A stretch of DNA of 62,734 nt, filler included, from Dugesia japonica (Eukaryota), in the NCBI GenBank assembly GCA_001938525.1. It is 5 parts of 5 records of this genome, joined end to end, with 100 filler letters (N's around TTAATTAATTAA, not from the genome) between each part and the next. Parts side by side here need not be neighbours in the genome. Positions count along the whole stretch, not along the records: positions 1 to 9,890 come from MQRL01566607.1; 4 more parts are not named here. One strand, given 5' to 3'. Below the pieces are notes generated by a model that had not been told where the DNA came from, ran no database searches, and was given only the letters and a program-made list of their open reading frames with translations. Shown here piece after piece: positions 1 to 53,586 of the stretch. Each line of letters starts with the position of its first letter. Positions within the stretch are counted from its first letter, which is position 1. A program made the translations under genes and the position numbers.

Positions 1-1
1 T

Positions 2-386
2 CATAACCCGCATAACCAGGATGCCGGAATATTAGTCGATAGCTCCAACTTACCACCGGTAGAAGCCGCTGTAAATCGTATTCAGAACTTTGGCGAGACG
101 TTAAACTACCAGCATTGGAACGGGCCGGTGCGTAATCACACTGCCCCGTTCCAGTATCAAACTCCGGCCCCACCCCCAGTCGTACAAGCATTCATCAGCA
201 ATTTGCTCTGGGGCGTTAGGGAACCCACCGGNNNNNNNNNNNNNNNNNNNNNNNNNNNNNNNNNNNNNNNNNNNNNNNNNNGTCGTACAAGCATTCATCA
301 GCAATTTGCTCTGGGGCGTTAGGGAACCCACCGGTGTCGAGGACTCCGAAAACACTGCTCCTATAACGGACGCGGCCACTAACTAA
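2..386 (+). CDS. ORF1 of the repeat family, copy A (partial; spans an N gap with duplicated flanks)
   Basis: My translation HNPHNQDAGILVDSSNLPP...YQHWNG...FISNLLWGVREP aligns with ORF 31824-32252 (NPYNRDAGVLVDCSNLP...YEWNG...FVNNTLWEIRNP). Confidence 0.7.
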
Positions 387-595
387 TAGTTTTTCATTAT
401 TTTATGTTTGAATTGATAAATACATATGTGTTTCTAGTTAGTACTAATTTGCGTAGAACTGATTCATTATTTTAATAAAGGGGAATTTCTGTTATCGTTA
501 CCATAAGAATGTTTGAGTTTCTGTCAATGAAACAAATTAATAAAAAAGGGTCTGAGTTCAATGATAATAACTTTCATTAACCGTTAATATTTTAG

Positions 596-954
596 TGCAT
601 TCCTCTCTGAACCGTCCTTCAGCTCCTACTAAGAAACTAAGAGACACCAGCGAGGACCAAGAAATCACTTGGGACCTCTATTGCCTGGCAAAACGACGCT
701 GGGAGGCGGAGATTGCCACCGCGAACAGTAAGGTCAGCCGATACAAGAAGAAATGCATGTCCTTCAAGTCTGAAGCCGAGGCATCTCATAGGTAAGGAAG
801 GCTCTGGAAGACCCAACTAGAATCTTTTACTGAGATGATTCGGTCCTACCAAGACCGCGAAAACAAATTGGTACAGGACGTCCATCGATTAAAAGCTGCT
901 ATGCCCCTCGAACCATTAATTGTCGACAAGGGTAGCCAGACCTCGCGGCCTTGA
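596..954 (+). pseudogene. ORF2 of the repeat family, copy A: coiled-coil protein ending DKGSQTSRP; one in-frame stop
   Basis: Starts after the acceptor TTTTAG|TG. The frame continues past TAA at 793-795 as GRLWKTQLESFTEMIRSYQDRENKLV..., which matches 31244-31606. Confidence 0.7.
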
Positions 955-1042
955 TACTTGTAAATTTACAAATAAGCGTTTTGTTATACCTACATTCTTC
1001 CTTCTGAATTATTCACTTGATTATCTTTTGTCTGTTTTACAG

Positions 1043-1454
1043 AAATAATTNNNNNNNNNNNNNNNNNNNNNNNNNNNNNNNNNNNNNNNNNNNNNNNNNN
1101 NNNNNNNNNNNNNNNNNNNNNNNNNNNNNNNNNNNNNNNNNNNNNTTAAAGCAGAAAGCGGATAGAGCATTGATTAAGCATTTAGACCAGCGAGATCGTC
1201 TGATCAAAAAACTTGATCAGATTGTGAAAAAGGAGAATGACTTGGCGGTGCAGACAAAGACGTTAGAAAATGAAAAAAAAATGCTATTGCAGAGGAAAAT
1301 CGATTTCCTCAAACAATATATATCCGACCTTTCCCGCCAACTAGGAAACCCTACATGGGTCCAATGGGACGACAATGATGATTCGGCGGCGTTCAACCTT
1401 TTGACGACCAATCCAGCCCAGTGGTTAGATCCGGGCGCTTTGGATCTTATCTAA
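1043..1454 (+). CDS. ORF3 of the repeat family, copy A: coiled coil with acidic tail ...QWLDPGALDLI (gapped)
   Basis: Acceptor TTTTACAG at 1035-1042. Homologous to 30734-31095 (QWFDPGALDFM) and 25778-26106. Confidence 0.7.
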
Positions 1455-2029
1455 TTTTCATTTAAAATAATTATTATTGTTCAATTCGTTCTAATCTTTG
1501 ATGAAGCCGTGGGAACAGGGAAAAGAGTGAACTCAAATTCAAAGGCCTATGGGAGCGCACCTTCCATTAAGAGAGAGGTCAACCGCTATATGCTGAATAT
1601 CTAACCTAGGGGCGTTTGGTTAAATTCTTGAAAGGGTTCCCCTGAGGGCTGTTTTTCCGCAGCCACACTTTTCTTCATCCAACTCAGGTTGGACCCCAAC
1701 GATATTAATAATAATAATAATTATAGTAATTTTATATATGAGGTATTAAAAATTACTTGTAAACTTTACATGATACTGAAGAATTATTATATGAATATTA
1801 TAATGATTTAAATACAATAATGAGATGCAGAAGGTCACAAATCACGATTAATTCTTGTAAAAAATAATTAACTTTCTTTTGATGTTCATTAAAATCTGTA
1901 GAAGTAATTATGGAATTAAATGAAAAACCCACATTTCTTTAAAAAATTTATAATAGATAATTACCATATCCATAATAGAATTCCATTTTAAAACTTTTCA
2001 ACAAAGTGCTTGTTGATGAAAAATGCAAT

Positions 2030-2815
2030 TAAATAAATAAGAAGCTGCAATATTTTATTCTAGAACCTTTTTACTAACAAACGTACAAACACCATTAAAA
2101 TGATCGACCATCTGTAGTAAAGGACTTTAAATCTTTCCATTTCAAACCTAGAGAAGCAATGGTTTCTTAAACTTTTCTAAAGATATTTATTGCAGTGGCT
2201 ATTCCTTTTAAGATACAATGAACAGCCAGTTCTTCACACAAATCATAATTACTATTAATTCCACATACACAAATTAAAAGGTGAGTAGTATCTTTGATGT
2301 CATGTGTCTCATCTAGTGCAATAAAACAACATTGAAATGAATTCACTTGTTTTTTGAAAGTTTCTAAACTATGGTTCCCTATGTGCTCAACTTGGCTCAT
2401 CATTGACCTAGCTGACAAACTCATATTATCTATTATTTTTCTTTATTTCTAGACTTATAATTTCCATAACTTCTAAAAGGCATTTTTTAAAAATCTTACA
2501 ATGAGTAGATAGTTTTCCAACAAAAAGAATCAAAATCATAATCGTATATCCAACACGAACACCTGCTTCATTTTCATTATGCATTTTAAAAAGAAATCTT
2601 GCTGATGGTTCAAAGATTGTTTTAAATTATTTATTTGAATCGTTCTTAGACTTCCTAGGAGGCAATCATATTTAACTTTATGTTGTGAGTCATAGTGCCT
2701 TACAAATTAAACCGTATGCTTTTTATTAAACTCTATGAAAATATAATCATTTGTACATTTTTCTTCAAAAATCCGTTTTTCGTCTTCTATCTTTTACTTC
2801 TTGCTACCCATTTTT
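2030..2815 (-). mobile_element. Degraded hAT transposase (GTF2IRD2/SPIN-like)
   Basis: Motifs SLSARS, FIALDETHDIKDTTHLLICVCGIN and EELA, followed by a TTDG-like motif; many stops. Confidence 0.8.

Positions 2816-6480: not shown

Positions 6481-6546
<66 letters not shown>
6364..6546 (+). repeat. (TAA)n microsatellite with an internal gap
   Basis: Directly visible. Confidence 0.95.
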
Positions 6547-6547
<1 letters not shown>

Positions 6548-6550
6548 TAC

Positions 6551-9500
6551 TATGGGGAAATAATTATTAACTAATAATTTCACCCAATAGAAATTGAGTT
6601 ATATAAATATTAATATTGAAACGTTTGTATTTCGATATTATTTATATTATGAAACATGATTTGTAGTAGTAAAATAAATAATGTCTAAAAATATTAGTAG
6701 TGATTTACAAAATTAATTACCAATTGAAGATATACCTAACATGGTGGCAGCGGTAAATACCGATTCTATTAATTCTATTAAAAATATATAGGAAAATATA
6801 TATATCGATAATAATAATAATAAATAGTTTAACATTAATTAACAGAATATAATAATACTATGAGGAAATAATTAATTATTAATAATCTCATCCAATATAA
6901 ACTGAGTTATCTGAATTTTAATATTGAAATTCTAGTATTTCAATATTATTTATCTTATGAAACATGTGTTGTAGTAGTAAAATAAATAATTTCTAAAAAT
7001 ATTAATTGTGATTTGCAAATGAATTACCAATTGAAGATATATCAAACATGGTGGCAGTGGTAAATACCGATCTTATTACAGAGAGGTTATTGCCGAATGT
7101 GTTCTGCAGAGGAGATGATATTGAGAAATTCATCAAACGGTGTAAATTGTATTTTAAAGCTTAAAACATCACCTATACGAAACAACAGGAGAGATTAGTC
7201 TCGTGTTTGTTAAATGAAGATTTGTTGGAAGAATATGCAAAAACGTTGAAAAAAGTTGAAGGTTTTCAGGCTCGTTTACGTATGGNNNNNNNNNNNNNNN
7301 NNNNNNTTATCAAAGATTTTCAAAATTTGATTAATTACATGCGTGGAAATGAAGAGATTCAAGTTTATTTTAAAAATGTAAAAGATTTAGTAAAATGATT
7401 ATTTACAAATAAAGATTTTACTAAGAAAAAAATGGTAGCAAAGATGCTAGTATATTGTTCAGATAACAAATAAGTTTAAGAAGAAGTTACTTTGCAAAAA
7501 CGAGAGAATATAGAAGAAATTGAAGAAACAATGACGTTAGTAGATCAAGTTGAGAAAAACAAATACCGAGTTGATGCAGTTAGAAGTTACGCGAGAGTTA
7601 TAAATCGAAATTATCAGAAACCTGTAAATCATACAGTGAATAGACATGTATATGCTAAAGAAAAGAAAAACAAAATATCTAATGTTGGTCATGTCATAAG
7701 ATCAGTCATACTAAAGCAAATTAATAGACAAAAAAGTGGTAGAGTGCTGGATTTGTCATAAAACAGAATATATAAGTCGAGGCTGTCCAAACAAAAATCA
7801 ACAAAATGTTTTGGATGTAAAAAGGTTGGCCATATTAGAAGGTTATGTCAAGAAGTGAGGTGTAAACGATGTGGTAATGGTGGACATATAGCAGAAGAGT
7901 GCTACACAAATTTGAAAGCGAAAAGTACAAGTGAGAAATTTATGACTCCAGAAAGATCAGAAAACCGATATAATTGTGTTGATGCGATTGAAGATGAAGA
8001 TGTCAGTACAAACGATGGATATGAGGAAGCATATGAAAGTGATTCTGAAAGGCAGNNNNNNNNNNNNNNNNNNNNNNNNNNNNNNNNNNNNNNNNNNNNN
8101 NNNNNTTGCAAAAACGAGAGAATATAGAAGAAATTGAAGAAACAATGACGTTAGTAGATCAAGTTGAGAAAAACAAATATCGAGTTGATGCAGTTAGAAG
8201 TTACGCAAGAGTTACAAATAGTATTGATCAGAAACCTGTAAATCATACAGTGATGTGGAGCAAAGAAAAGAAAAACAAAATATCTAATGTTGGTCATGTC
8301 ATAAGATCAGTCATACTAAAGCAAATTAATCGACAAAAAAGTGGTAGAGTGCTAAATTTGTCATAAAACAGAATATATAAGTCGAGGTTGTCCAAACAAA
8401 AACCAACAAAATGTTTTGGTTGTAAAAAGGTTGGCTATATTAGAAGGTTATGTCAAGAAGTGAGGTGTAAACGATGTGGTAATAGTGGACATATAGCAGA
8501 AGAGTGCTAAACAAATTTGAAAGCGAAAAGTACAAGTGAGAAATTTATGACTCCAGAAAGATCAGAAAACCGATATAATTGAGTTGATGCGATTGAAGAT
8601 GAAGATGTCAGTACAAACGATGGATATGAGGAAGTATATGAAAGTAATTCTGAAAGGCAGTACTCAAAAGTCAGGGCTTCATCATTAGAGGAGTTGGTTG
8701 GAGCCATTCATTGTTAAATGAAGTTAGTAATTATCTTCAAGGGGTCGGAAAGTGAGATGATATCAGAAAAGTTACAGAAAAAGTATAAAGGTTCTTAAAG
8801 AGGGAAAATTCTGCAGATGAATGAATAGTAGAATGAGTTGGTACAGTGGAAACAGAAAAGAAAACAAATATTTTGTACCATAAATTGCAAAGCAGACAAA
8901 GTATTACGTTATCAATTCAAGGAAATAAAGTAGAGTGTCTATTAGGTACTGGGGCTTGAATTAACGTGATGGATTTGAGTTGTTTTAATAAATTACAAGT
9001 AAATTTAGAAGTGAGTGATGAAAAATTGCGTTGTGCAAATAATAGTACACTTGAAATTGTTAGGAAAGTTAAAACCGGAGTGATAATTGATCACATTTTC
9101 AAAGAGATTACTTTCTTAGTTGCTGAAAGAGTAACACCAGATCTGATTGCAGGAATAGATATGCAGAAGATTTTTGGANNNNNNNNNNNNNNNNNNNNNN
9201 NNNNNNNNNNNATGAAAAATTACATTTGCAATATTGAAGCGAAATTTTTAAGACAAATTAAAAAAGGAGAGCGATTGACAAGAGCCTTAAATATTTTGAA
9301 GATTTAAGAAGATCAACTGTTATTGAAAATAATTGAAAGTAAAGAAGATGCTTTATGGCAGATAAATGAGATGTAGGACGCATACATCTGACAAGACAAG
9401 CCTTTCCGATGACTAATATCGATGAAAGGCTGGACAAGTTAGATGGAGCCAAATATTTCAGTTCAATAGATTTGGGAATTGCATAATATCATGTAGAGCT

Positions 9501-9890: not shown

Positions 9891-9990
9891 NNNNNNNNNN
9901 NNNNNNNNNNNNNNNNNNNNNNNNNNNNNNNNNNTTAATTAATTAANNNNNNNNNNNNNNNNNNNNNNNNNNNNNNNNNNNNNNNNNNNN
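9891..9990. other. Artificial contig spacer N44-TTAATTAATTAA-N44
   Basis: Identical 100-nt structure occurs four times; the core has stop codons in all six frames. Confidence 0.95.
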
Positions 9991-16569: not shown

Positions 16570-17365
16570 TGTCATTTAATAGTTTTCCATGTTGAATTGT
16601 TTGTTGAATATGTACTTTTAAGTTTGACGAATGTCATGACCAAGATAAGGCTACGCAAACTTATCCATGAGAAAACACAAGAGTTTGTAGGTCAATGCCA
16701 ACGCAATGAAAGGTTTGCCCTTGAAATTTGTTAATTGTGATTGCAAACGCTGAAATAATTTGAAACTGCCTGTTTCAAAATAAATGGTAATGTTGTATCA
16801 GACGGAGCTAAATCCATTTTGATAAAAAAACAGAACTTCCTCTACAACATACAGATATGATTTTCGCTTTAATAAAATTATGAGCCAATTCTTCAATTAT
16901 CAGTCNNNNNNNNNNNNNNNNNNNNNNNNNNNNNNNNNNNNNNNNNNNNNNNNNNNNNNNTAACAACTTCTTTTTTTAATGTTAACATATGAGGATGAAG
17001 TTAGAGTATTTAAAAATTTTGTAGGATAATGTAAAGCATCATTCCTGCCATCAGTGATAATTGAATCAGAACTATGATAATATTTTGGAACATCAGGAAT
17101 CATTTCGATGATTTTATTGTTAATTTCAAGTGTGTGTACATTTGTTGGCGCAAAAATTACTCTTTTCGAAAACTTATCTTTTGTCATTTGATTGATGTTA
17201 AAAATTAATGTAATTAGATTGCCAGTATTTATCATTTCTTCTTGTATTTATATAATATCTTCCAAAATACCAGAAATTGTAGGTAAATTACCTTCCCTAA
17301 CTTTTAATAACCAACTATTATAAACAGTTTGAATATTGCTTCTCATATTACTTGCTAGCTTTAAA
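16570..17365 (-). mobile_element. Helitron PIF1-like helicase C-terminal remnant
   Basis: LKLASNMR, WLLKVREG, IFAPTN, YPTKFLNTL and RQF...[24 protein letters not shown]. Confidence 0.9.
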
Positions 17366-20300
17366 ATATCCGGATGAAATGCGGAAGTTGGCTGAAAATT
17401 CTGAAAAGAACGATAAAAATTTTGGTGGGTCACAGATAAATAAGTTGACTTACTCAGAAGTGGCAGCTGCAAGTTACAGTCCAGGAATTAAAAAAATTGA
17501 TTTGAAAGATTCTAACTATCATAAACCCAGGAATGAAATTGAAAAAACTATTCCAATTGCTGAAGAATTTAATGATTCCAAAAATAGCAGAGAAGGTCAA
17601 TTAGAAATATGCCAACAGTTTCCATGAAGTTAATTGCAAGGAAATTGTACAATAGATCAAAAGAACTCCCTCAATCAAAAGAAGAACAATTAGAAAAAGA
17701 CTCATGCTTTTGCTGTGGTAAAACGGGTCACAGTTTTAGAAGCTGTCGATTACCCAGAAATCAGATATATCAAAACAATTGTGTGAAATGCATTTCAGAA
17801 GTGGACAATGTGGATGAAAGAAATAAAGATTTAAAGATGATCAATCATGATGTTAGCTATTTAAACGAAAGAGACTCAATTGTCTCAATTTCGTCGGTGG
17901 AGTCAATTGTGAAATGTATAAGAATGATGGAAAAATTTGAAGTATGGTCAAAGTTAGAAGTAAAATGGTCAAAATGTTGTGGGATACACGTGCTTCAATA
18001 TCGTGATGCATACAAAGTTATGGAACGAGTGTGAATCTTTTCCCTTGGATAGATGCAATATTAAATTGAGTGGTGCATTTTCAAAAGAAGCAGTGAATTG
18101 TTCAGGAATTGGAAAAGTTGAAATAGAATTTGGAAATGTGAAGAGAATTGTTTACATTGTGATTGTTAATGGAATAAATCCAGAAATTATTGTTGGAATA
18201 GATATGTTTAATGCATTTAATATTCAATTAAAAATGCTTAATATACTGGATTCAGAGAACATTAACAGCAAATTCATTGATAATGATAGTTTTAAGGCAG
18301 CCTTTAAACCGGAGGATAATGATTTAAAAGAAATGCTTCCGAAGTTTTCAAATATATTTATGGCAGATACTTGTGATCTTAGAAAACATTTTGTAAAACA
18401 TTTCATTCCAACAGTTTGCAATCCTATTCTACAACAATCTCAACGTCAACCAATACATCTTGAACAGAAGATTGATGAATTGATTGAGCCACTGGTAGAA
18501 AGAGATATTATCAAAGAATGAAAAAGTGCTAGAAATTTTCCAATGGTAATTGTTGATAAAAAGAATGGCTCGATGTTGACTGATTCTACAAAAAAGTTTT
18601 CATTCCCAATGCCAGATCCACAATCCTTGTTTGATAACCTTTGTGGTTGTACAATATTTTCAACTTTGGATGTGGGACAAGCTTCTTACCCAGTAGAATT
18701 AAATGAAGATAAGATTAAAACGGCATTTTTAACAAAGAAGGGACAATATTACTACATTCGTATGCCATTTGGATTATCAACTGCTCCAGCTATATTTCAG
18801 ATTTGATGCATACAATTCGTGATGGGATTTTATTTAAAGGTGTAGTTGTATATTGACGACATTTTAATATTTGCAAAAAGTCAATCAGAACATGATAAAA
18901 TACTTGAAAATGTATTTCAAAGAATTTAGAATTTTGGTCTCAAATTCAATCCAAATAAATGTAAACTATTTGTTATTTTTGGGCTATACCGTTAGCAAAG
19001 ACGGATTGGGGCTTAATTCAGAGAAAGTATTAGAAATTGAAAAAGCAGAAATACCAAAATGTACTAAGTAATTACGTTTCTTTTTGGATATGGCAAACTA
19101 TTACAGGAAGTTTGTTAAGAATTTTTCGTTACTTGCAAAACCATTATATGCCGCAATGGAGGGCCATAAATGAAAACTCAAATGGACTGAAGAGTGCAAA
19201 ACAAGCTTTAACGAGATCAAGCAAGCTTTATGTAAAGCACCAATATTAAGTTTTTCGGATTCAAGCAACCAATTCATATTGAATACTGATGCTAGCTTTG
19301 GTGGGATCGGTGCAGTATTGAGCCAAATTCAAAACGGTCGTGAAGTGGTAATTTCATATGGCTCAAGAATATTAAATGTTCATGAAAAAGGTTATTGCGT
19401 GACACGTAAAGAACTGCTGGAGTTATATGAATTCATCAGGTATTTTCTTTATTATTAATATGGGAATAGTATTGTAGCACAAACCAATCACACGGCATTG
19501 GAATTTATTAAGCGTTCACATAAAACAATCACACCACAATTTTAAACCTGGATAACCGAATTGGCAGAATATAATTTGGAGCTTAAATATAGGAAAGGTG
19601 ACCAACACCTAAACGCATATGGTATGTCTCGTATTCTTTCAAGTTAATGTTCTCAATGTCAAACCGAACATGTGGATGCAATAGTCAAGATGTCTAAAAT
19701 AAAATATCTGAGTCTTTTAGATGATTCTGTAGGCAATGCGGATAGCTATATTAACAGATTTCACTGTCAATTTTGCAAGCACAAGAAAAGAAGTAGTGAA
19801 AAGGTTCAAGAGAAATTTATTTCGCGCGAAGTTAGTAATCCTAAGGAACAAATCGTTATGGATATATCATAGATGGATATTGGTCGATCAAATAAAATAT
19901 ATATTGTTGTCATCAATCAACTTAGTAAACTGATTAGTCTTACTGCAACAAACAATTAAAATGAAACCACTGTAAAAGCACTCCATTAAACCAAAGGATT
20001 TATAAATTTGGAAAACCACAGAAAACCGTGTCAGACCGTGGTAAAGTATTTGAATGGAAATTATTACAAAACCTAGCTAGTAAGCTTAATATTTCATGGA
20101 TTTTTACGTCTCTATATGAACATAAATCTAATGGATTAGCTGAATGAGCAATCAGGACGGTTTGAGACCTGGTAGTTACTTCAATGAAAGCGGGAAAATA
20201 GGGCAAATCTTGGGATGAATTTTTTCATAGAGTAGAGTTTGCATTCAATTGTACTGTATCAAAGTCAGTGGGATTCTCATCAATGGAAATCATTTATAGG

Positions 20301-23453: not shown

Positions 23454-23553
23454 NNNNNNNNNNNNNNNNNNNNNNNNNNNNNNNNNNNNNNNNNNNNTTA
23501 ATTAATTAANNNNNNNNNNNNNNNNNNNNNNNNNNNNNNNNNNNNNNNNNNNN
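23454..23553. other. Artificial contig spacer
   Basis: N44-TTAATTAATTAA-N44. Confidence 0.95.
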
Positions 23554-23949: not shown

Positions 23950-24751
23950 AAAATAATACTTTTCTTAAAAAATAACAATTTTCTAAAACTTGTATGATAT
24001 GAACACATCAACACTGAATTCTTACATAAAATTATCAGAACTTCTTCTACATATAACTTTTCTTTTATAATTCCTTCTTGCTCATTATAAATAATAATAT
24101 TTATTGAATAATAATAATTTCACATTTTTATATTTTTTTAAAAAATTATAATAATAATACAATTCTTGTAATTAAATCTGACTAATAATCTACTATTTTC
24201 TTATTTATAATGATTATGATGATTTATTCTGCTTTTTTCCCTATAGTTTCTCTTTAAAATATCAAAATATTTTAATATAATTATTTGTTTTAATCTCTCC
24301 TTTTCTCTCATCAATATAATTTTATTTTTAATACATGAATACTTTCAACACATTTATATAAATTATAAATAATAATATTTTCCTCGTTTTATTTTACATT
24401 CTCCTTTTCGACTATTTAAATACTTTGATTTATTTTCTGAGCATATTTTACCTTAGCCATCTAATTATTGATTATCTTCAATTATATATCTTTTAAAATT
24501 TAATAAATTCTTCGTTTTCTCGACAACTTATTGCATCTTTATTTTTTATATATTGCTTTACCCTAGATTTTGTTCGATATTTCTTACACTTTTTAACTTC
24601 AGTTATTATTATTTAATAATCATTTCCTTATCTTTTCATAGATAATTATTTTTTTTATTTCTAATTAATTTCTTATTCATTTTCTTACTACCCTTTAATT
24701 TATTTCCTTCTCTGTTTTTCATATTTTACGCAAGGCTGTTTCAGCTCAACA
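23950..24751 (-). mobile_element. A-rich repeat beginning TGTTGAGCTGAAACAGCC; probable 5' terminal part of an LTR-like element
   Basis: The terminus matches 39952 (TGTTGGTCTGAAACAGGCC) and both have a similar strand-biased AT-rich body. Confidence 0.5.
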
Positions 24752-24969
24752 CTTCCATGGTTATTATTATCGTTCATAATAATTTTTGGAGTTATTATCT
24801 CCATATGAATTGATGAAATTATTGCAATGTTTATCAACGATATGTTTGTTGATTTTGTTTCTAAATCATTAATAACGCTATCCCGTTAGTTTTCTTATGA
24901 TCATTGACTTGACATTGACTTGTTTATTTTATTTCTTACGAAATATCCAACTTATTTTCTTTAGTTAAC

Positions 24970-25254
24970 ATGTTCGGAGATAAAACACAGAGATAATATC
25001 CATTAGACACAGGACGTGGAATCAATAAACCCGTAACTAATACGCTAAATCTTTGTGTAGACATATTAAATGACTACTAGAATCTACCCTCAGTAGAGAG
25101 AAGAGTCCAACAAGCAAGGCCTAGATTTGAGAGTGATTTCGCTCGTTTTCGAAACCCTGGATATTTCCGGCTCACTGACCTTCCTTCGTTCCCATAATCA
25201 TGGTACACTGCTGACACAGAGGCAAACCCGTGGAACGAACGCTATACGTTGTGA
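24970..25254 (+). pseudogene. ORF1 paralogue, copy B
   Basis: TGRGINKPVTNTLNLCVDILNDY*NLP aligns without gaps to TGRLIFKRYKNPYNRDAGVLVDCSNLP; acceptor TTTCTTTAG lies upstream. Confidence 0.6.
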
Positions 25255-25391
25255 AATTGACTAATTATTTAGCTTAATTTGAATAAACTTTTGACAGTCA
25301 ACTTGTTTGCTAGTGTCGCTTTTTTGTTAACCTAAATAAATTATTGTATTGTTCAATTATCTGTTTTAAATCTATATTATGTTTTTCATAG

Positions 25392-25651
25392 TGTCTAAGT
25401 TCGCAGGTAGGATTTATGAAAATAGTACCGGTCGTACTATTTTTCGTCGGGTAGAAAACCCGTACCGCGTAGAAGCTGAGCTTTCTCATGCTCAGGAATG
25501 AATGTTGAAAGGACAGTTCGAATCGTTTGCAGAGAATATCCAATCTCTAAATGAGAGAATGAACAAGGTTTTCAATGATGTCCTGACACTACGTAAATGA
25601 ATCCAACTTAATCCGCTCTTAATAGATATGGAAGATCAGACACTGAACTGA
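25392..25651 (+). pseudogene. ORF1-N-terminus/ORF2-C-terminus chimera, copy B
   Basis: Begins at AG|TG. TGRTIFRRVENPY is in frame with EAELSHAQE*...FESFAENIQSL...NPLLIDMEDQT. Confidence 0.6.
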
Positions 25652-25777
25652 GTCTGCTTGTGTACAGTGCTACCTACTGCTTGTTAATAAATATTTTAAT
25701 TTGTTCATTCCAGCTTTCTTTATTCACATAGGATTTGTAAGCTGCTTATTCTTTTATATTATTTACTTTTGATTTAG

Positions 25778-26106
25778 TGCCTGTTATCCAGTTACCCTGG
25801 AGTTTACGGTGATGTCACAAATTATTGCGCGGACTATTTACCGAACGCAAGTATGCCAAAAGGTGTGAACGAGCTCTGACCATCAAACAAAAAAATCGAT
25901 GAATAGAGAAATTAGAAGTTGTGTCTAAAAAGCAGATGGCCACCGCCATTAATACTGCAGACAGATTCTTTAAAAAGGTCAGTTTTTTAACGCAATATAC
26001 AGCTGATTTAACGGCCAATCAAAGCCTTTGAATCATCGACCAGCTGGATTGCGAGAATGATGAAGCTCTGTTCAACTTCTCTGACGAGGCTTCAACTCAA
26101 TCTTGA
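25778..26106 (+). pseudogene. ORF3, copy B
   Basis: Begins at AG|TG and reads PVIQLPWSLR*CHKLL...ERAL...KVSFLTQYTADL...ENDEALFNF. Confidence 0.65.
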
Positions 26107-27364
26107 CTTACCCATAGTTTTTTTAATGTTGAATAAACCACACTCATTGAATTTCTGTGGTTGTTTTTTTATACGCGTTGAAATTAAGGGGAAACTTGAA
26201 CCCAAACCAAAGAAATTCGAGCAAGCACTCAAACTACGGGTTATGAGTCACTGGCTCCATCCCGAAAGTCTACCAAATGGATGTTAGATTAAGTTCTTAG
26301 CTGGGTTACACTGAGGACTGTCCCCCAGTTACAAATTAAAATCACCCAACTCAGATGGGACTTCAACAATATAAAAATTTTATTTTTTGTTGTTTACTTT
26401 GATCAGTATAAATAGTACTATTAAATAATATAAGCGGTAATCAAAGTGAGTATCATACAAAATATAAAAATGAACAAAACCGAAGAGAAACGTCCAAGCA
26501 CTCAGGTCAGTAAAAGAATCACTAACACACTCCATCTCTAAAATATTGACATGTGATACCAGATTAGATTTCCTTTAAAAAAGTCACTTGGACATCCAAC
26601 ATAATCAATTCAGGAAATCATATTGTTTCAAAAATTAAAATACAATTATCTGATTAACTGGCTTTAATAATTACTTTTAAAATGTTTTTAATCTAACTCT
26701 AAATACGAACAGAAAGATCGCTATTGTAATGACCAGAAACCCAAAAATTTCAGCTAATTTCTACAAAAAGTAACAAATCACAGCGAAATATTTTAAATTT
26801 AAAAAGATTATTTGGAATAAATATTCTTGTAGAGTAGTTTTATTTTTGATATTTATTTTACACAATTTTGTAATTGTATTTTTTCAAATTAAAATTTTGT
26901 AAAAATACAATCCAAAATAGACTAAACATCATATAACTAGAAACAAATAATATAGAAACATCTCTCTACAAAGTCGTTTATTCGTGAAGGGTTATTAAAT
27001 AGAATCTTTTTTTTATTATTCTTTTTTACGATAGTGCAACTGATTAAACTTTAAAAAGTTATCTGTAAATCTTTTTAAAAATGATTCATTATATTAGAAA
27101 AAAGTCATATTATAATAGATAATTTTTTTTGGTTGATGGATGTCATTAAATTCAATATCCACTATACGCTATAAAAAATTCGTATTTTATGATTTAAAAT
27201 TCACCATCCTTTATTTATACCACTTATAGTTGCCAAATAAAAATTATAAAAATAAATATAATACTTTTTAAATCAAAATTTGTGTCATAAAATTTCCATG
27301 CTACTTCAACATTTAAGTTTGTTTAAGTTTACTTCGATAAATTTTGAAATATATTTTTATATTG

Positions 27365-28098
27365 ATGGATATATCCATGTTAGTAAACCCGTTGAAAAGA
27401 GTAAATATGATACGTTAAAATATTGTTTAATGTTCAATAGAATATTTTATTAGGTTAAAGATTTTGTCGATTCAGAAATAAAACATAAATATCAGGTATA
27501 TAAATTCTTTACCGTTTTTTTAATAAAATTTTTAATAATCATTTTAAAGAAAGAAAATGAATCATCTTCTAATGATTGCCAGGTAAATTATAATTTTTCA
27601 CATGTCTACTTAAGAATCTGATAGATTATATCGGAAAATATACCTTCAAATCAAATAAACGCAGCGTCTCCTGTTTTACCGCCATCACTACATCCAAAAG
27701 AAAAAATGAAAATTCTGCAGGAGTGGGTAAATAGTATCCCAAGTGATTCACCGTGGGATATATGTGAAAGTAGTTCTCGCAGTAATTCTTTAACAATTAT
27801 GTCAGATGATTATACTAAACAACACGAAGAGAGTGCAAATGTTAGTGACCCAGAAATCTTACCAAATCGTCAATGCAAGAAACTATTTACTTCAACAGAA
27901 ACTCAACAGATTGTTCATTTATTTTACCATCATTTTAAGCAAGGTACACTTCCAACTATAGTAGAAGTTAGACGTCTTATTCAAAGCAGTGCAATCGGAT
28001 TAGTACGTACACCTGAATCAGTTCGTGCTAAAATCAAACGCTTGCATACTACCGGAGATTGGGCTAGCTTCTTGGGCAAGAATTTTTATACGTTATAA
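27365..28098 (+). CDS. Predicted intact 4-exon gene (27365-27400, 27454-27495, 27550-27582, 27625-28098), 194 aa, with a C-terminal Myb/SANT-like helical domain
   Basis: Three phase-0 GT-AG introns of 53, 54 and 42 nt join into one open frame. The C-terminus is KKLFTSTETQQIVHLF...LPTIVEVRRLI...RTPESVRAKIKRL. Confidence 0.6.
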
Positions 28099-29358: not shown

Positions 29359-30733
29359 TTTTTACAAATAAATTTTGTTTTGTTTTGATCGAAGCCTTAT
29401 CTTATTTTAATGAAAACTTATGAGTTGTTTAACAAATAATATTACTAAAATCTTTTCGCAGTTGTAATAATCGCTTTAACTTAACATGTTTCTGTTTGCA
29501 ATGCCGTTCATATTAAATTTTTTTTTAAAGATTTCAGTACTACTAACTATTTAAAAAAATTGAAATATGGATATATGGTTTTAATTTAAAAATTTGCAAT
29601 GTTTTCTGATAATAATTTGCCTAGATTGCCCTGTAACAATTTCTCTCGATTGTCGTAATAGTGAGGTAGAATATCGATTTAAATTATGATTTTATTTAGA
29701 GAATGATAGAAAAATGAACTTTTGAATCAAGTTTAGTATTTATTATAAAAAAAACATTGATTTGANACTTAAATTANACTTATTAAATGTGAAATGCCTT
29801 CATTAAGCTTGGAACACCGGGTAACCGCTCGGGGCGTCAAAACTTATTTGTAAAATTAATTTAACGTTTGTTTTTTGCAACTTTTTTCTTAATTAATGTT
29901 ATTATCAAATCAGTTATGACATAAAATTTTTTGTATTTTTGATAATTAAGTTTTACATTATATTATTTTAAATTTAAGAAATACTAATATTTTCTGTTGA
30001 AACTTTTTTTTAATGGACAACGGTCAGGGCTTCACTATTGTACTTCTTACATTTATTAAAAAAAATGGCGCTTAACGATGGGTTTTTCCGGAGCTCCCGA
30101 AAACCTTAGTTCGGTACTGACAGTCATTAAGAGTACACTCGCGATGTCAAAGTTCATAAAAAAATAATTATAGTCCTAGGAAAAGTCTCAATACTCTTCA
30201 TTCTAGTCTGAATCTATTTGAAAGTAACAATGATGTATCATCCTTATTTAAAGTACCATTATCATATTGTTTGAGTTAATTATTATTTTATTTGTGTTTC
30301 TCAATAATTTTAATTTTTCCCGATTTTATAAAATTAAAAAGCTTGTATCAAAATGTCTTGCAATCGAGAAACTTAACGGACATGCGTAATCCATATTTCC
30401 CGGTAGTTCTTCCAAATTCTCCTCCATAGCAGTTTTGGGACAAGTAAGTGATAAGATAAAGATTTGTTTTTGCACAACACAAAAATGTTGGAGTTCCACC
30501 TGAGTTGGTGTTAGAAAAAATAGTGTCTGGGGAAAAACAGCCCTCAGAGGACCCTTTCAAGAATTTATCTAATGTCCCTAATTAGATTTTCAGTATAGAG
30601 CGGTTGACTTCCATCATTTATTTGAAGTACATACTCATATGCCTTTAGTTTCGGGTTCCTTATTTTCCCTATAATTTAATTTATTAACAACAAATTAATA
30701 GTGTATGAGAACTAAAATTTTATTTCCAATTGA

Positions 30734-31095
30734 TTACATAAAATCCAGAGCACCCGGGTCAAACCACTGGGTTGGCTCTTCAGGGATGAAGCCAAAAGCC
30801 GCTTCATCATCCTCGCTGTTCNNNNNNNNNNNNNNNNNNNNNNNNNNNNNNNNNNNNNNNNNNNNNNNNNNNNNNNNNNNNAACTCGATTTTGTGCTGGA
30901 GTACTTGTTTTGTCTGTTCGGCCAAGTCGTCATGCTTTTTGACTATGATGTCAAACTTCTTAATTAACTAGTTGCGCTGGGCAAGGTGTCGTAGGAGCGC
31001 GCGTTCATTTTGTCTCTTGATATGGCACTCAAGTAATCATTTTTGAATAAGGCGGTGGCAGCGACGTAAACTGGTAGGAAGTCTGATTCTTGGCA
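30734..31095 (-). pseudogene. ORF3, copy C
   Basis: Starts at TTTGTAG|TG and reads PRIRLPTSLRRCHRLI...NERALLRHLAQRN*LIKK...QWFDPGALDFM. Confidence 0.7.
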
Positions 31096-31243
31096 CTACA
31101 AATGAAATAATTAAACTGAAATTACACTATAATGTAAAAGTAAATCGAAATTCATATTTTTCCTTACGATAAAAGAAAAGAATAAAAGAAAACCAATGAT
31201 CAAAATTATAAATGACTATTTTATTTGTACAAGACATAACATC

Positions 31244-31606
31244 TTAAGGTCGTGTAGTTTGTGTTGGTTTATCCACCATGAGAGACTCAAGGGGCATGCG
31301 TTCCCGAAGTTTGATTATATCGGTCACCAGTTTATTCTCACGGTCATGCAGGGACCGGATGATCTCCGCGAAAGATTCTACTTGTTGTTTCCACAAGCGC
31401 TCTTGTGGGTGCGAGGCCTCGGCCTCTTTTCGGAACGCCTTATATTATATTAGCTTTATATTTCTTTACCTTATTTTCTGTGATTGCAGTGTTGGCCTCC
31501 CAACGGCGCTTAGTGAGACGGTATAGGTCCCACGTCATCTCCACCTCCTCACTTGTTTCTCGCACTTTTTTAGTGGGAACCACATAACGATTTAGGGAAG
31601 AATGCA
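31244..31606 (-). pseudogene. ORF2, copy C; ends DKPTQTTRP; small frameshift near 31445
   Basis: Starts at TTTTCCAG|TG and reads HSSLNR...TWDLYRLTKRRWEA...EAEASH..ERLWKQQVESF...DRENKLV...MPLE. Confidence 0.72.
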
Positions 31607-31823
31607 CTGGAAAAGAAATGTATTTAAAATATTATATGTAAACAATGAGGAGATAAATAATTAGTCGATTTCATTGAAGTTGCAACCACATCATAATTAA
31701 TTACTTCGGGCTTGGTAAACCGTTAAATTATGATGATTAAGATCGAGAGTTAACAAAAAATGCTTAAATAAAGACTAAAATAATTTATTAACACTAAAAG
31801 TGGTCATCAAGAGATACGAATTG

Positions 31824-32252
31824 TTATATAGTCTCGTCATTAGCATCAAAAACCACATTTTTTGTGCAACCACCATTCTCAGGATTTCGGATCTCCCAAA
31901 GTGTATTATTTACAAACTCACCCAATCTGAAGAAATGTGGTAGACGGGCAGTTGAAACTGGAATCACCGAAGGGCCTTCCCGCCACTCACTGGTGGTACG
32001 AAGCTCTTCACTGTTAAACAGAGGAAAAGCCGTGGTGGAATGATATACTCCTCGATCTCGATTGGAGCCGTTCCATTCATAAAAAGCATGACACTCGGTG
32101 GCGTCCCATTGTCGCTCGTTCTCGGCCTCTTTTGTAGGCAGATTAGAACAGTCTACCAACACCCCAGCGTCTCGGTTATAGGGGTTCTTATATCGTTTGA
32201 ATATTAATCTTCCGGTACGCCGGTCTAAAAGCATTTCCCACTTATGTTCCAT
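31824..32252 (-). CDS. ORF1, copy C: intact 142-aa orphan protein
   Basis: Open ATG-to-stop frame with an acceptor (TTTTCTTTTAG) 7 nt upstream; homologues in copies A and B. Confidence 0.72.
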   Translation of the reverse strand: MEHKWEMLLDRRTGRLIFKRYKNPYNRDAGVLVDCSNLPTKEAENERQWDATECHAFYEWNGSNRDRGVYHSTTAFPLFNSEELRTTSEWREGPSVIPVSTARLPHFFRLGEFVNNTLWEIRNPENGGCTKNVVFDANDETI

Positions 32253-32574
32253 TTTTTTCCTAAAAGAAAATTACTAAGTCGAAATGAGTTAATCATTGAT
32301 TTGACGACAATTTTAGCGATAAAAGTTAATAAAAAGAGAAATGAAGTACAAATATGAGATTATTTATTTTACAGTGAAACAAAAGCGAAACACCAAAAAG
32401 TAGTCATGGTTCCTCGCCCAAGTCAACTTCCCAGGAAAGTGAATATAATTCCTTGAAGCACTGGAGATCTAACTCGTGCGGGGAGAGGACGACATTGGGG
32501 TAGAGTAAATGGCCGATTAATTTCTTACGCCGTGTCCGTTTTCTCTCCCGTCGAATGTAGTTCAACGTATCTTT

Positions 32575-34151
32575 CAAAAGAAATTTCTTCTATTGCAGTA
32601 AATTCTAACCGATTAATACCATGATCTTCATTTTTGATTCCACGATTGAATTCATTATTTTCTTTTTTTCTGTAATAACTCACATATACCAAGCAATGGG
32701 TGCACTAATAGATCGCCGAATATAAAGAAAAGAATATATAAAGAAAATTATGAGGGTTCAACAAAATCCAAACCTTATGCAATAATTATGGCGACATCCT
32801 TAATGAAAACAATATTAGCCTTAATGACATATTACCCTCAGCCTACAATATGGTACTGGCGTAATGGAATAGATGAGTTCACATTAAGAGCAGTGATTTC
32901 AATAATAGTAATAATAATAGGGGTTCTAGTAGTACTAGTAGGGGTAGGAACGACAATATTAGGGATAACAGCAGTGGTAACAGTCTTCATACCTGTGATA
33001 ATATTAACCACACTAATGTCGATAATAAGATTAATGGCAATGACAACATATACAATAATAATAACTGTAATACTATGAACAATATGAATAGTGGTAATAA
33101 TAATATTTATAATCATAATAATAACAGTAATGAGAATAATAATAAAATTAATGATAATAATGGGAATATTAACAATAGTAACAATAACTATACTAATAAT
33201 AAAAAAATAACATTAATCATAATTTTATTAATAATAAGGAGAATGCTAGTAATAACAATACTAATAATTAATGATAATTATAGAAATATATTTATAATAA
33301 TAATACTGATAAGGATGATATTGATGAGAATCATAGGAATATTCATAATAATGATAATAACGACTCATGTACCTCTGATAATGCTAGTAATGCGAACGTC
33401 GGTAATATAATTGATAGAAACCATGGTATCATTACTAACAATTTTGATCATAATAAAGTCATTACTGGACATTGACAGAATGATATTATGAATAATAGAC
33501 AAGAGTAATATTATGTGCAATGACGTCCATGGTGGTACAGATAGGGTTTATCACAATAGATTGTCGTAATAGCAACACCACTCATGAAAATTAAGCGACT
33601 CGTCATAACACTTAATATTATATTCCTGATAAAATCACTGAAAATGCTAGTAATACTGATATCAGACACTATTTCTGCTAATACTACTGATGATGGTGAA
33701 AAATCGATAGTAGTGGCTAAAACGATAAGGTTGATTATTTTTATCCGTAATTAGATGATAGTGATTATTTTGCTAACAAAAATCCACCGATGACAGTTAA
33801 TTGCTAGTTGACTCACTACATGACATGCATACTCCTCGTTATTAGTGTTGCAGGTGTTTTCATCGTACATGCCCGAATTTGAACTACAATTGGAGTGAGT
33901 AATCTCAGTAAAAAAGAAAAAATTTTTTTTGTCTTCTCTCTCTGTGATGGATTTTTACGGAATTGAACTTGATAATTCATTATCACGTAGCTTTTTGGAT
34001 TTATATTCGGCGATCTATTAGTGCACCCATTGCTTGGTATATGTGAGTTATTACAGAAAAAAAGAAAATAATGAATTCAATCGTGGAATCAAAAATNAAN
34101 ATCATGGTATTAATCGGTTAGAATTTACTGCAATAGAAGAAATTTCTTTTG
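32575..34151. repeat. 152-bp inverted repeat pair (32575-32726 and 34000-34151) enclosing Asn-rich low-complexity DNA
   Basis: The arms are reverse complements apart from two N positions. Confidence 0.9.
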
Positions 34152-35531
34152 GTATAAAACAAACCAGGTCTATTCTACATATGTTTCAGGGTTCTCTCGA
34201 TAACTATACCCGTGTTTCTCGTGAGAAAAGAATTTAACTGCATACTTAGAATTTTGGTTACATGACTATCGGGCCGAACTGGTAATTCCATAAAAAAACA
34301 TTTATAATTTTCGTTTTTCTGCTTATCATATTTTTTAAAATTAACATTTATTTAAAAATGACATAATTTTAACGATAACAGATAATTTAAGAATAACATA
34401 ATTTTTGATTACTGCATGATACATAATGGCAACACAAAATTTACTTGGTAAAATTAATTTTCAGCTTTCTGCAACGGGTAACTTCTTCCTGAAATTCATT
34501 TGATTATATTGATCGCAAGTTTCTCTTGTTTGATTTCCTTTTTTCTTGCTAGCCCAATACTTTTCCACTATAAATCCGAAACAAATGCAGTTAAAAATTT
34601 ATGAAAAATCGTGATCTTACGAATAGTAAGGTGATGGTAGATTAATCAGCTTCTCGTAAAATTTTCTTCCAAAAGAGTATAGCAGTAATATAGTTTGTTA
34701 ACTTAACAAAGTTGAGAAAAGTTTGTGTTTTACTTCTAAATTTCGGGGGGGTTTATATACCATTTGCCTTTGCACCCCAACACAGCCTTCATTGGCGTTC
34801 TATTTTTATTTTTCATTTCTTAAGTTCTATTGGTCCTGATGCCAATTTTCTGATTTTTTCTAAGAATTTTTCGTCTATTATTGATGCCTATTTTTGGAGC
34901 ACCTTGTAATTTTTTATGCCTGTTTTATTTTTCTTTTCTGGACTGCGATTGGTTTAAACCTTTAAAACCTTCTCAAGACCCTCCTATTGATAGTAGAGTT
35001 TCTCCGTTACCAAATCCTATTGCCATGTAACATTTTCTCTTCAGATTTTCTTACTGAAGCCTCTTGCAATTTTCCAGAGCAACGATATCCTTCAAAAACT
35101 CATTATTGTCTAATTTAATTTCTTTCTTGACTAAAATTAATTAATTTTCCCCTGCTAATTAATTACTTTTTCAAAAAAAATTTTCTTGTTTTTTCTTAAT
35201 AAATTAAAATTTTCTTTAATTATTGAAGTTGATCAGGGTTGAATTTATTCTTCTGACATTTTCTTTCTGCCGTTTATCTTTCTTTCTTCTCTTTTTATTA
35301 GTGTAATTATTATAATGTTTAACCAAATGATAATTAGTTCTAATTAGCTTTCTTTATACCCCTCTTTTTCATTACTTTCTGATTTGGCCCCACTGGCCTT
35401 TATGTTCTTTACCACGCGGGTGTTGCACCCCAACAAAAATATCAAAAGACAAATCAAGGACTTTACCAATCTATGATCTCATAAATTAACGAATTTAATA
35501 ATCTTTTCTTCACTTATCGAATAACTATTGT

Positions 35532-35631
35532 NNNNNNNNNNNNNNNNNNNNNNNNNNNNNNNNNNNNNNNNNNNNTTAATTAATTAANNNNNNNNNNNNN
35601 NNNNNNNNNNNNNNNNNNNNNNNNNNNNNNN
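35532..35631. other. Artificial contig spacer
   Basis: N44-TTAATTAATTAA-N44. Confidence 0.95.
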
Positions 35632-36106: not shown

Positions 36107-36457
36107 TTAAAATCGTTGATTTGCCTTTGCGAAATCCCAAAGACATCTCAACAATTTAAAGAGTAGTTTTTGATATATCTGTTCTTGGTTATTCACTCTT
36201 TCTTGTAACTGCTTAAGCATGGTCAGTTTATTCCTTAGAGTCTCTGCCTGTTGGACAACTTGCTCTTTCAACTTGATGATCTGCACATCTTTCTGCTTGA
36301 TGCGATCCTGTGTGGTCTACCATGGATCTACATCTGTGACATCCAATCCAAGGGAATCCCATAAAGTAGGCATGCTGTTACATGGGTTTGCATTGAAGAA
36401 GCTCCTCTCGTTTCTTAGTGAATCTCTTGCGATTGTTTCCGTTTTATGACGAGGCAT
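36107..36457 (-). pseudogene. Orphan coiled-coil ORF (117 codons, one internal stop)
   Basis: TAG|ATG start; reads MPRHKTE...QDRIKQKDVQIIKLKEQVVQQAETLRNKLTMLKQLQERVNNQEQ; higher-GC island. Confidence 0.45.
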
Positions 36458-38569: not shown

Positions 38570-38738
38570 GTATAAACCCAAACCAAAGAAATGCGAGTCT
38601 GTACTCGGATTCCGAGTCAACGGCTCCGTTCCGAAGATCTGGATTTTTAGGGACGCCAGATTAAATTCTTCACGGGGTTTTACTAGGCCCTAGACTAAAT
38701 TTTCCAAAAGATTAACCCACCTAGATAAAACCCCAACA
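38570..38738 (+). mobile_element. Copy E: 3' terminal block of the orphan repeat family, ending CCCCAACA
   Basis: AACCCAAACCAAAGAAAT..GAGTCA..GGCTCC..CCGAA..AGATTAA.TTCTT is shared with 26200-26368. Confidence 0.7.
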
Positions 38739-38739: not shown

Positions 38740-39952
38740 TACTATAATAATAATTTTAATAATATTTATCGTAAAATAATAATAATTTCGATAGTTTGTT
38801 TCTATAATGTACATAGGGATTATACACGAATAAATGTAATTAATTTAACATTCTTACAAAATCTGAAATTAACTTTTTATTACCTTTTATTACATATAAT
38901 TCTGATTTCTTAATTCTAATTCCTTCTTCATAATTAATAATATTTAACTAAAATAATAATAATATTATGTTCTACTTATTTAAATATTTTATTATAATAG
39001 TATGATTTTTCCTAACGGCCTAATAATAATTTCTTTAATGTTTTTAACTATAATAATAATACCGATCTATTTCATATATCTTTTCTATAATGATTCCAAT
39101 TAATTTTAATAAAATCTTTTATTAACATACTTTTGTTTTAATCCTACTTTCTTACATTAACTATTTTATTATATTCTAAATATCCTTTTTAATATATTTA
39201 TACTGTTATAACATAAATATAATTATAAATAATAATATATCAGAAATTCTAATTTCGATTTCATTTATTATTTCTTCTTTACTATTTCCTGACCTAATTC
39301 ATACTTTTAATTTTGGTTTATTCGAGTTTCTTTTTATTTTCGTGAGCTATATTTATATTATTTGAGCTTTTCTGCTTTTAGTTTATTGATTATTATTTCT
39401 TTGAGCATTTTATATTAAATTATATTCCTTTAATATTTCTGGTATAAAGTATTCATTAATTAATAATTGAATTATTATTCTTTTTCATTTCATGATCTCC
39501 ATTTGTTATTTAATTATTGTTCTTTTCCTTTCTAAATTTATCATTTGAGCTTTTTGGTTTATCATCTTCTTGAACACTATCTGATTTCAATTATTAATTT
39601 CTTCTTTTATTATATTTTAATTTAATGATCACTGGTTTCTGTGTTTATTTAATTTTCTCAATAATTAAATCGAAAATTTATGCAATAATTCGACTTTTGA
39701 GTTTATTCCGATGATTCCGGTTTATATGTTTCTTGTATTCTGATTATTATTTTCTATTCATTTCTCTCATTGTTATTAATTTAATTACTCAATTAATTTA
39801 TCGATTTATTGAAGCCGTTATTTTATTTTATTCGTTATCATCGCTTTTCGCTTTTCTATTCCTTTTATTACTTCATATCATTGTCTCTTCTTTTCCCTAG
39901 TTTATTTTTGTCTAAATATTTATTTTATTAACTGGCCTGTTTCAGACCAACA
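38740..39952 (-). mobile_element. A-rich repeat beginning TGTTGGTCTGAAACAGGCC (same type as 23950-24751)
   Basis: Shared terminus and base composition. Confidence 0.5.
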
Positions 39953-52324: not shown

Positions 52325-52619
52325 TTATTTATTTTTATGAACAACAAATTGTGTGTTTTGACTACAATAAATCAAAAATGCTGATGACGCCACACGAATT
52401 TCCATTTCGGCTTGGTCGACTTCATGATACCATGGTACATTTCCCCATTTATTCACCTGTATAAAACAACTTTTTCCTTTTTATTAGTCACTTCAAATTT
52501 TACCTGATATTCAGATTCCAAACGACTCAATTTTACTGCATCTTCCACAGATAAAATATGGTCGGTTAAAGCTAATGTCAAATAAACAGATTTCAAAGTC
52601 TCAATACAATGCTGGTATC
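52325..52619 (-). CDS. ATPAF2: ATP synthase mitochondrial F1 assembly factor 2 (ATP12), last two coding exons (52619-52504 and 52456-52325)
   Basis: IETLKSVYLTLAL...VEDAVKLSRLESEYQ|VNKWGNVPWYHEVD matches the ATP12 C-terminal signature (SRLEEEYQ..KWG.VEW.HD); 47-nt GT-AG intron. Confidence 0.9.
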
Positions 52620-53586
52620 CTGTAAATTTAGGTATAGTTTTGGACAATGATATATTTAATTTAAAATGCCTTTAATTTTATTTTAATAAAATAAATGAAT
52701 GGTTCATGTGTATATATTAACTGAAATTACTCTAAATTAATATTAAATGCAGAATATTAAACTTAAAGATGACTTTAAATGGATTCAAAATACGTCTTTT
52801 TTGAAGATGTATATCGTATACAAATATCTACTAAGTCATTTTTGATAATTAGAACTAACAATGTGGAATGAACCAAAAATTTAAAGTTATAAAATTTGAA
52901 ATTTCTCGATATTTTAAAAGTTTTTATGTTCGAAAAATTATAGGGCTTTTTATAGGCAAAAAATTATTAAATGTAAATTTATATATTTTTAATTCAATAT
53001 AGAAAATTTTTCATTCAGTATAAACATTTATATAATTTTCAAAGCATTGAAGCGTATGACGAGAAACATAATTTCTAACNAAATGAGAGAACTAGTTGTT
53101 CAATGAATGGTAAGAAGGCGACAAATGCGTTTCTGAAAGACACCATTTATTAGCATCTATTAAAATAACATTAATTTACAGTATTATAAGCGAATTTTAC
53201 CATATAGGTGCGATAAAGAAATTTAAAGATAATACAGAAATAAAAATAAATATTTGTAATATACTATTAAAGGATTGTACAAGAAATTTGCACGAAATTA
53301 AAAATCAGGTTTTTAGGTAACACAACCTTGCAAAGAGCATTCAATAGTATAAATTATAGTTTCAAGGAGATTATTTATTCTCCAATATTGCTAAGGGAAT
53401 AATGTATATAACAGATTTAGAGGAGTTCATAGAAACAAAGGCTCCGAAAAATCACAGACAAAAACAAATAATGAAAATATGAATAAGGTGAAGGAACTCC
53501 AAGTTTATCCATTAGAGGAATATCTGATCTTACTGATTAGAGCACCACTTCAATATATCGAATTATCAACTCTTTATGCATTTATA

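Follow-up and report, generated by a model that had tools for sequence, protein, structure and literature searches.

In the adenovirus major late unit, one leader is spliced to alternative acceptors that have separate poly(A) sites, and in the gypsy retroelement the env ORF ends in the 3' LTR. Among planarian elements, the giant Gypsy Burro/GYPSM1 exceeds 30 kb and encodes a polyprotein of ~4,900 aa. The env gene of Drosophila gypsy is the precedent for a start codon made by splicing, in the form AT|G, and the splice-made start codon is thus in itself already known (PMC2585583). Penelope-like elements (Penelope, Naiad, Chlamys, Terminon) are described with 5'-truncated copies, with partial tandems that form a pseudo-LTR and with a 30–40 nt tail, and also with retained introns, including a 5' intron running from the pseudo-LTR into the body, and accessory coiled-coil ORFs (PMC8557442, PMC6431247); Naiads are among the elements devoid of a hammerhead (PMC8557442).

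The window analysed here is the whole stretch of 62,734 nt, filler included, joined from five records of the Dugesia japonica assembly GCA_001938525.1. It is ~25% GC, gappy and full of decayed transposons, with fragments of Gypsy reverse transcriptase, RNase H, integrase and zinc knuckle that score in Pfam. Comparison of the window with itself gave three copies of a cassette of small ORFs: A at 1-1700 (+), B at 24965-26368 (+) and C at 32574-30486 (-). What the sequence-only reading that first drew attention to these ORFs did not mention is that the cassette forms the body of a mobile element, likely a retroelement, that is present in high copy number and is terminated by a structured repeat. 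With somewhat better than even confidence, we hold that its ORFs are expressed as separate cis-spliced mRNAs from a leader ending in A. What is observed are sites resembling splice acceptors, poly(A) signals, protein-level selection that begins at the first codon, a high copy number and a structured repeat; from these we infer the splice, its donor, the promoter and the mode of replication.

Copies A and C have the ORF order ORF1, ORF2, ORF3 in common, and one 3' end is found in all three copies. Copy A (+) opens with the 3' part of ORF1 (2..386; start outside the window, N run at 232-281), which shares 45% aa identity with C ORF1 over 74 codons (pS 0.93, pN 0.40), followed by ORF2 (595..954), entered at the AG|TG at 596, with its first ATG at codon 55, a stop at codon 67 and 63-65% aa identity to C ORF2, and by the coiled-coil-like ORF3 (1043..1454). 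Copy B (+) comprises the ORF1-like ORFa (24970..25254; acceptor 24965, own ATG 5 nt downstream, three internal stops), ORFb (25391..25651; AG|TG at 25392, two internal stops), which is chimaeric, with an ORF1-like start and an ORF2-like end, and ORF3 (25777..26106; AG|TG at 25778, three internal stops), 41% identical in aa to C ORF3 from the first codon. Copy C (-) has an extra ORF0, whose 3' part lies at 32404..32574 and whose 5' part is likely 34152-34291, then ORF1 (31824..32252; open, 142 aa, acceptor 32259 with its own ATG 7 nt downstream), ORF2 (31244..31607; AG|TG at 31606, frameshift near 31445) and ORF3 (30734..31096; AG|TG at 31095, two internal stops, N run at 30822-30881). ORF0 is interrupted by a 1.6-kb element at 32575-34151, a young insertion whose interior is of low complexity and whose terminal inverted repeats of 152 nt are 99% complementary. 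With internal stops in five cassette ORFs and a frameshift in one, all three copies are decayed. A code reading stops as glutamine was considered and dropped, as all three stop codons occur inside the ORFs, opposite differing residues.

Upstream of copy C, a frame of ~115 codons at 36111-36457 (-), with one internal stop, a coiled-coil-like end and an AG|ATG start behind a T-rich run, may be a further cassette ORF, with no homology detected. Between copies B and C, an open 157-codon frame without a Pfam match (27625-28098, +) looks like an intact terminal exon. Twelve-base pieces lying between two 44-N runs, at 23498-23509, 35576-35587, 53867-53878 and 9935-9946 (TTAATTAATTAA where read), are assembly linker; whether the sequences on either side are true neighbours is uncertain, also in the case upstream of copy B.

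The sequence-only reading had placed a pyrimidine tract plus AG before eight ORFs (at 596, 1043, 24965, 25392, 25778, 31095, 31606 and 32259), and all eight positions indeed follow a YAG with a pyrimidine-rich run. The AG|TG reading frames were likewise recovered at five of them (596, 25392, 25778, 31095 and 31606). That these five ORFs have no start codon holds for four; at 25392 an in-frame genomic ATG stands four codons upstream, inside the pyrimidine tract. At 1043 the acceptor-like AG is present and the start of the ORF is hidden by an N run (1051-1145). In-frame stops occur 8-13 codons upstream of the AG|TG at all five sites. The acceptor look is common in the window, since 415 of 2336 YAG sites pass the filter that seven of the eight named sites also pass; TG after AG is uncommon (37 of the 415 filtered sites), giving P(>=5 of 8)=2.5e-4, or P 0.006 when homologous sites are counted once (AG|TG at 3 of 5).

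Could each ORF have its own small promoter and an unspliced GTG start, the acceptor-like sites being by-products of AT-rich spacers? The frequency of such sites would fit, as would two contigs of run X1 (its RNA status is a guess) that cross the acceptors 31606 and 32259 unspliced, and the kept TG would be accounted for. This explanation is nevertheless very unlikely: AG with a pyrimidine run is kept at all eight ORF starts, including those with a genomic ATG behind, the spacers of ~100-200 nt already contain a poly(A) signal, and in animals GUG is a weak and seldom used start codon.

Poly(A) signals were found where they had been reported, with AATAAA at 474, 25282, 25686 and 26132 (+) and at 31225 and 30724 (-). 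The statement that most ORFs are followed by one of their own applies to eight of ten spacers and fails behind the ORFs at 596 and 1043; both exceptions fall within 591..1500, the very part of the window on which that statement was centred, and the AATAAA at 474..479 (+), accompanied by a second at 539, belongs behind the ORF upstream of 596, that is A ORF1. Shuffled sequences had AATAAA in 1.2 spacers on average and none of 5000 shuffles reached eight; for signals at most 50 nt from the stop (7 of 10), the shuffle mean was 0.57 and again 0/5000 reached the observed number. Poly(A) signals also occur upstream of the terminal repeat in copies B and C, and the inter-ORF spacers measure 88-217 nt in seven of seven cases, with AATAAA in six. 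As the sequence-only reading had argued, the ORFs are not consecutive exons of one protein; their own stops and poly(A) signals make them separate genes.

Spacers of this length, in which an acceptor follows a poly(A) signal, would also fit an operon resolved by the spliced leader (SL) trans-splicing of the host, given the flatworm operon spacing of <=300 nt (PMC12582326) and the occurrence of SL trans-splicing in planarians (PMC10899757). The flatworm leaders described in PMC12582326 end in AUG, however, and the argument that such a leader is out of frame proved true at all five AG|TG sites. In ORF2, the frame set by an AUG-ending leader stops after 4-5 further codons. Spliced leaders end in G in most other phyla, and a G-ending leader would not supply a start codon, whereas selection is seen on the N-termini that have no ATG. 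An operon of this type is therefore quite unlikely.

How firmly are these frames established as proteins? Between copies A and C and between B and C, comparisons of ORF1, ORF2 and ORF3 gave a pS of 0.77-0.96, that is saturated synonymous sites, against a pN of 0.21-0.44, which argues that the cassette ORFs encoded real proteins. Selection extends to the initial 23 codons of ORF2, which in both copies precede the first ATG (A/C pS 0.75, pN 0.19). At the ORF2 acceptor, A/C identity is 37% in the 60 nt before the AG and 70% in the 60 nt after it; at the ORF3 acceptor no such step is seen (47% before, 50% after), and the N-terminal residues are conserved. Since ATG-less N-termini appear to be under selection and the frame is closed 8-13 codons upstream, translation must, judging from these alignments, enter the ORFs via the acceptor from an upstream exon. 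The idea of one upstream leader spliced onto alternative terminal exons is upheld by this comparison as regards entry from an upstream exon, while neither a spliced read nor a donor was found for it.

The ORF1 database search returned one relative among six candidates, P0013, which matches C ORF1 from Met1 (39/66 identical) and is the sole database relative of all cassette proteins. No match was obtained for ORF2 among one candidate or for ORF3 among 110 candidates, and an ORF2 profile run against 1.84 billion representatives gave three weak matches to unrelated repetitive or coiled-coil proteins. In Pfam, neither ORF1 nor ORF2 falls into a family and ORF3 has a single coiled-coil match below threshold; none of seven cassette proteins matched PHROGs, PDB sequences gave a single match at E 0.38, and the Atlas gave no usable match for ORF1. 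Searches of viral_contigs and metagenome_contigs by DNA pattern or protein returned no locus, and no env similarity was found in the cassette proteins by Pfam, profile or PHROGs searches.

Two leaders had been envisaged, one ending in ATG-G and one ending in A, and codon usage and the Met1 alignment favour the second, the first fitting worse. GTG makes up 12 of the 44 Val codons in the cassette ORFs, yet the G is kept at all five AG|TG sites (P 0.0015; 0.02 for three independent origins). In a Val codon this third base would be free; its constancy therefore points to A rather than G as the missing base. The split codon of ORFb at 25392 aligns ungapped to Met1 of C ORF1 and to that of P0013, with ungapped scores of 46 and 36 at offset 0 and negative scores at all eight other offsets. 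Codon usage and alignment together make it likely that the shared leader ends in A and that splicing makes an A|TG start codon. A coding leader in phase 1 (e.g. ATG-G), cis-spliced to the same alternative terminal exons, would instead make proteins that begin M-V or with a shared short peptide. The five AG|TG sites and 24965 are all in phase 1, the frame of 24965, like the genomic in-frame ATG at 25392, counting against a non-coding leader ending in A, and the invariant GT of repeat A is preceded by G, the usual last exon base before GT. Such a leader, however, explains neither the G at the third codon base in five of five sites nor the precise alignment of the split codon with Met1 of ORF1. 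At 32259 it does not fit the frame either, although this site lies in an A run that makes the phase unreliable. We hold the coding leader to be unlikely.

A terminal repeat of ~175 nt ends every cassette copy: repeat A at 1528..1700 (+), with three conserved stems, repeat B within 26183..26368 (+) and repeat C within 30486..30675 (-), the last two ranges including their purine tracts. A fourth copy, D, the putative 5' copy, lies at 38570..38738 (+) and was matched by nhmmer from single copies at E 1e-13 to 1e-4; the window contains no fifth copy. Directly upstream of repeat A stands a PPT-like purine tract (1511..1527, +; 15/16 purines). The motif AGGG(G)AAA is present in all three cassette-end copies and absent at D, and the purine share upstream of the repeat is 0.94, 0.81 and 0.75 at the cassette ends vs 0.69 at D. 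Three stems are common to the folds of the four repeats, and in 9 of 32 pairs both partners have changed (0/500 shuffles; 0-3 in slid controls), a covariation among four sequences from which the structure was itself derived; the sense (cassette) strand folds at -22.6 vs -16.2 kcal/mol for the antisense. No Rfam family reaches threshold for the repeat, and no tRNA gene was found.

Upstream of cassette B lies a T-rich stretch (24040..24964, +), a putative leader intron, and a second T-rich stretch follows repeat D (38740..39950, +) until an unrelated Gypsy fragment ends it near 40000. The two are homologous (24048-24378 with 38891-39238), with 66% identity over 365 nt and a score of 71 vs a maximum of 52 in 400 shuffles, and neither strand is open in any frame, each frame having 20-53 stops. 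This homology suggests the element order repeat, T-rich stretch, cassette, repeat, the B-D link being one through low-complexity DNA. Elsewhere, TTGCACCCCAACA occurs twice (34770-34782 and 35423-35435, +), 653 nt apart with T-rich DNA between; its end is similar to that of the terminal repeat, a likeness that does not continue into the flanks.

Where would the leader end? In the T-rich stretches of B and D, no near-consensus donor preceded by A was found. The only GT invariant in all four terminal repeats raises another explanation, that the repeat is a leader RNA gene whose initial ~50 nt, with A as the last base, are trans-spliced to the acceptors of the cassette. This GT lies in a stem, paired with an upstream AC, and follows an A in three of four copies; two more stems come after it with a conserved TAARTTCTT between them, a layout that resembles SL RNA anatomy. 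It reads GTCA, however, which is a poor U1 match and not a usual donor, and is preceded by G in copy A; ATGs lie upstream of it in all four copies, and these four sequences reach the threshold of no Rfam family. This is the least probable of the explanations considered, and we infer a leader acting in cis rather than in trans.

Under the favoured reading, a cis-spliced leader ending in A, transcription would start in or near the 5' copy of the repeat, and the T-rich stretch would be the leader intron. Every ORF would have a separate mRNA, made by cis-splicing a non-coding leader exon common to all, with A as its last base, to the acceptor of that ORF, so that an A|TG start codon would be created at the junction between leader and acceptor, and each mRNA would be cleaved at the poly(A) signal behind its ORF. 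The ORFs that have their own ATG just behind the acceptor (24965 and 32259), an arrangement that a non-coding leader would require, may use the same leader by scanning. Unspliced RNA would be devoid of start codons for the AG|TG ORFs. The spliced mRNAs would stop short of the 3' repeat; the replication signal, and hence copying, would then be reserved to unspliced read-through RNA, which would explain why the acceptors are kept in all copies.

Reads or contigs of four runs were mapped at 80% likeness on copy C only (3.2 kb). Run X20 placed 3820 contigs on it, with a summed contig depth of up to ~87,000 in the terminal repeat and 31,000 in ORF2, vs ~10 at a unique junction; we take the family to number roughly thousands of copies, the depth sum being no direct copy number. 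In contigs of relatives, the succession repeat, ORF3, ORF2 recurs within a single contig. From the oligo-dT run X22, 108 of 13.6 million reads mapped to the repeat and ORF1-3, 107 of them <95% alike, and 13 came from run X21; relatives are therefore transcribed at a low level. The sequence-only reading had called for RNA reads joined at the acceptors. Of the 33 joints on copy C, 15 are listed and show no splice-site ends; of the 757 loose ends, the 19 listed all lie away from 31095, 31606 and 32259. On these shallow data, 121 raw reads in all and copy C only, neither spliced nor spliced-leader ends appear among those listed, and splicing at the acceptors is neither shown nor excluded by them.

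To which class does the element belong? An LTR-type element is the leading candidate, at a little under an even chance, a Penelope-like element is clearly less probable and some other type somewhat less so again, and the element is filed under neither family. A polypurine tract upstream of the 3' repeat, as in LTR elements, was found in all three cassette-end copies, and the repeats start with TG in two of four copies and end with CA in three of four. No single copy has both terminal repeats, and the 5' ends are missing: D consists of the repeat and the T-rich stretch behind it, B of a T-rich stretch, the cassette and the repeat, and the T-rich homology is all that joins the two. Behind repeat A, an AT-rich, tail-like extension (1701..1745, +) resembles the sequence behind repeat D (p ~0.005 vs 3000 random window segments, at 20-60 nt), B does so at 20 nt only (p 0.011) and C does not. 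This resemblance of A and B to D beyond the CA counts against a sharp 3' LTR end, and could reflect a target preference for TAA-rich DNA rather than a tail. In the 70 nt behind D, a single decayed copy, no TGG of a tRNA primer site was found; the hammerhead core CTGANGA...GAAA is absent from all four repeats on either strand, and no reverse transcriptase or GIY-YIG endonuclease ORF stands next to the cassettes in the window.

Two assignments to neighbouring elements were rejected: repeat D as the LTR of the Gypsy gag at 40016, a fragment with its own terminal sequence near 40060, and copy B as a tail belonging to the Gypsy pol at 17.3-20.6 kb, which has its own purine tract near 20595. Because of these terminal signals of their own, the nearby Gypsy fragments are not the partner of the cassette. 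One Gypsy family of the window (6498-7078 and 40000-40100, +) has an AT-rich terminal sequence ending in AACA and then TGGTGGCAG, presumably its tRNA-Leu-type primer site, and a tandem duplication in it (6498-6771/6808-7078) adjoins an (AAT)n array. Elsewhere, fragments at 2167-2442 (-), 16900-17487 (-), 47540-49300 (+) and 61535-62050 (+) resemble hAT, Helitron helicase, piggyBac and mariner transposases, a likeness recognised by eye, with no Pfam match for the two that were scanned. The last exons of a host gene are likely at 52330-52671 (-), with an intron of ~45 nt and a 72-aa piece without Pfam match; we take the product to resemble the ATP12 chaperone.

Taken together, the cassette arrangement is genuine and not a product of chance, and belongs to an abundant mobile element that appears to be an orphan. 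A more far-reaching proposal, which we consider doubtful, is that of an undescribed class of intron-retaining retroelements, present in thousands of copies and organised as an adenovirus-late-style unit, in which a leader derived from the repeat would supply the A of the start codons and thereby block translation of unspliced RNA, internal poly(A) sites keeping spliced mRNAs from being copied back. Accessory genes with splice-split start codons, if real, would amount to a simple gate between RNA destined for copying and RNAs destined for translation, would bear on how some retroelements keep introns, and would imply several orphan protein families in an abundant repeat that gene callers would miss or fuse, their ATG not being genomic. 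In the literature searched, most subscription papers and repeat libraries lying beyond it, no retroelement has been described with several small accessory genes that each have their own acceptor, poly(A) site and splice-split start; the family could already be listed in the repeat catalogues of paper supplements.

Compared with known systems, the cassette resembles the adenovirus late unit in its working only, as it has no viral hallmark gene and no relative in viral_contigs. With Burro/GYPSM1 it shares thousands of copies, accessory ORFs and an AT-rich genome, as far as that element is outlined in PMC6431247; no Burro polyprotein domain is linked to the cassette, the two being set apart by description and not by sequence comparison, and the cassette may belong, as a part not yet described, to a repeat that has already been catalogued. 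TRIM/LARD elements, such as the taeniid ta-TRIM, are similar in their terminal repeat of ~200 nt, TG...CA-like ends, purine tract before the 3' copy and lack of gag-pol; ta-TRIM, as presented in PMC4558846, has a tRNA primer site and no ORFs >120 codons, whereas the cassette has no such site behind D and its interior encodes selected proteins. Unlike Penelope-like elements, it has no linked reverse transcriptase or GIY-YIG in the window and no hammerhead core, and a purine motif stands directly before the repeat; several acceptor-plus-poly(A) cassettes are present here and not in the Penelope-like descriptions that PMC8557442 and PMC6431247 offer. The gypsy (errantivirus) env gene is alike in being a 3' retroelement ORF whose start codon is made by splicing, from an AT donor and a G acceptor (PMC2585583). 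In contrast to this one ORF and its AT|G, the planarian cassette has three to four unrelated small ORFs, a putative start codon split as A|TG, and a poly(A) signal for each ORF.
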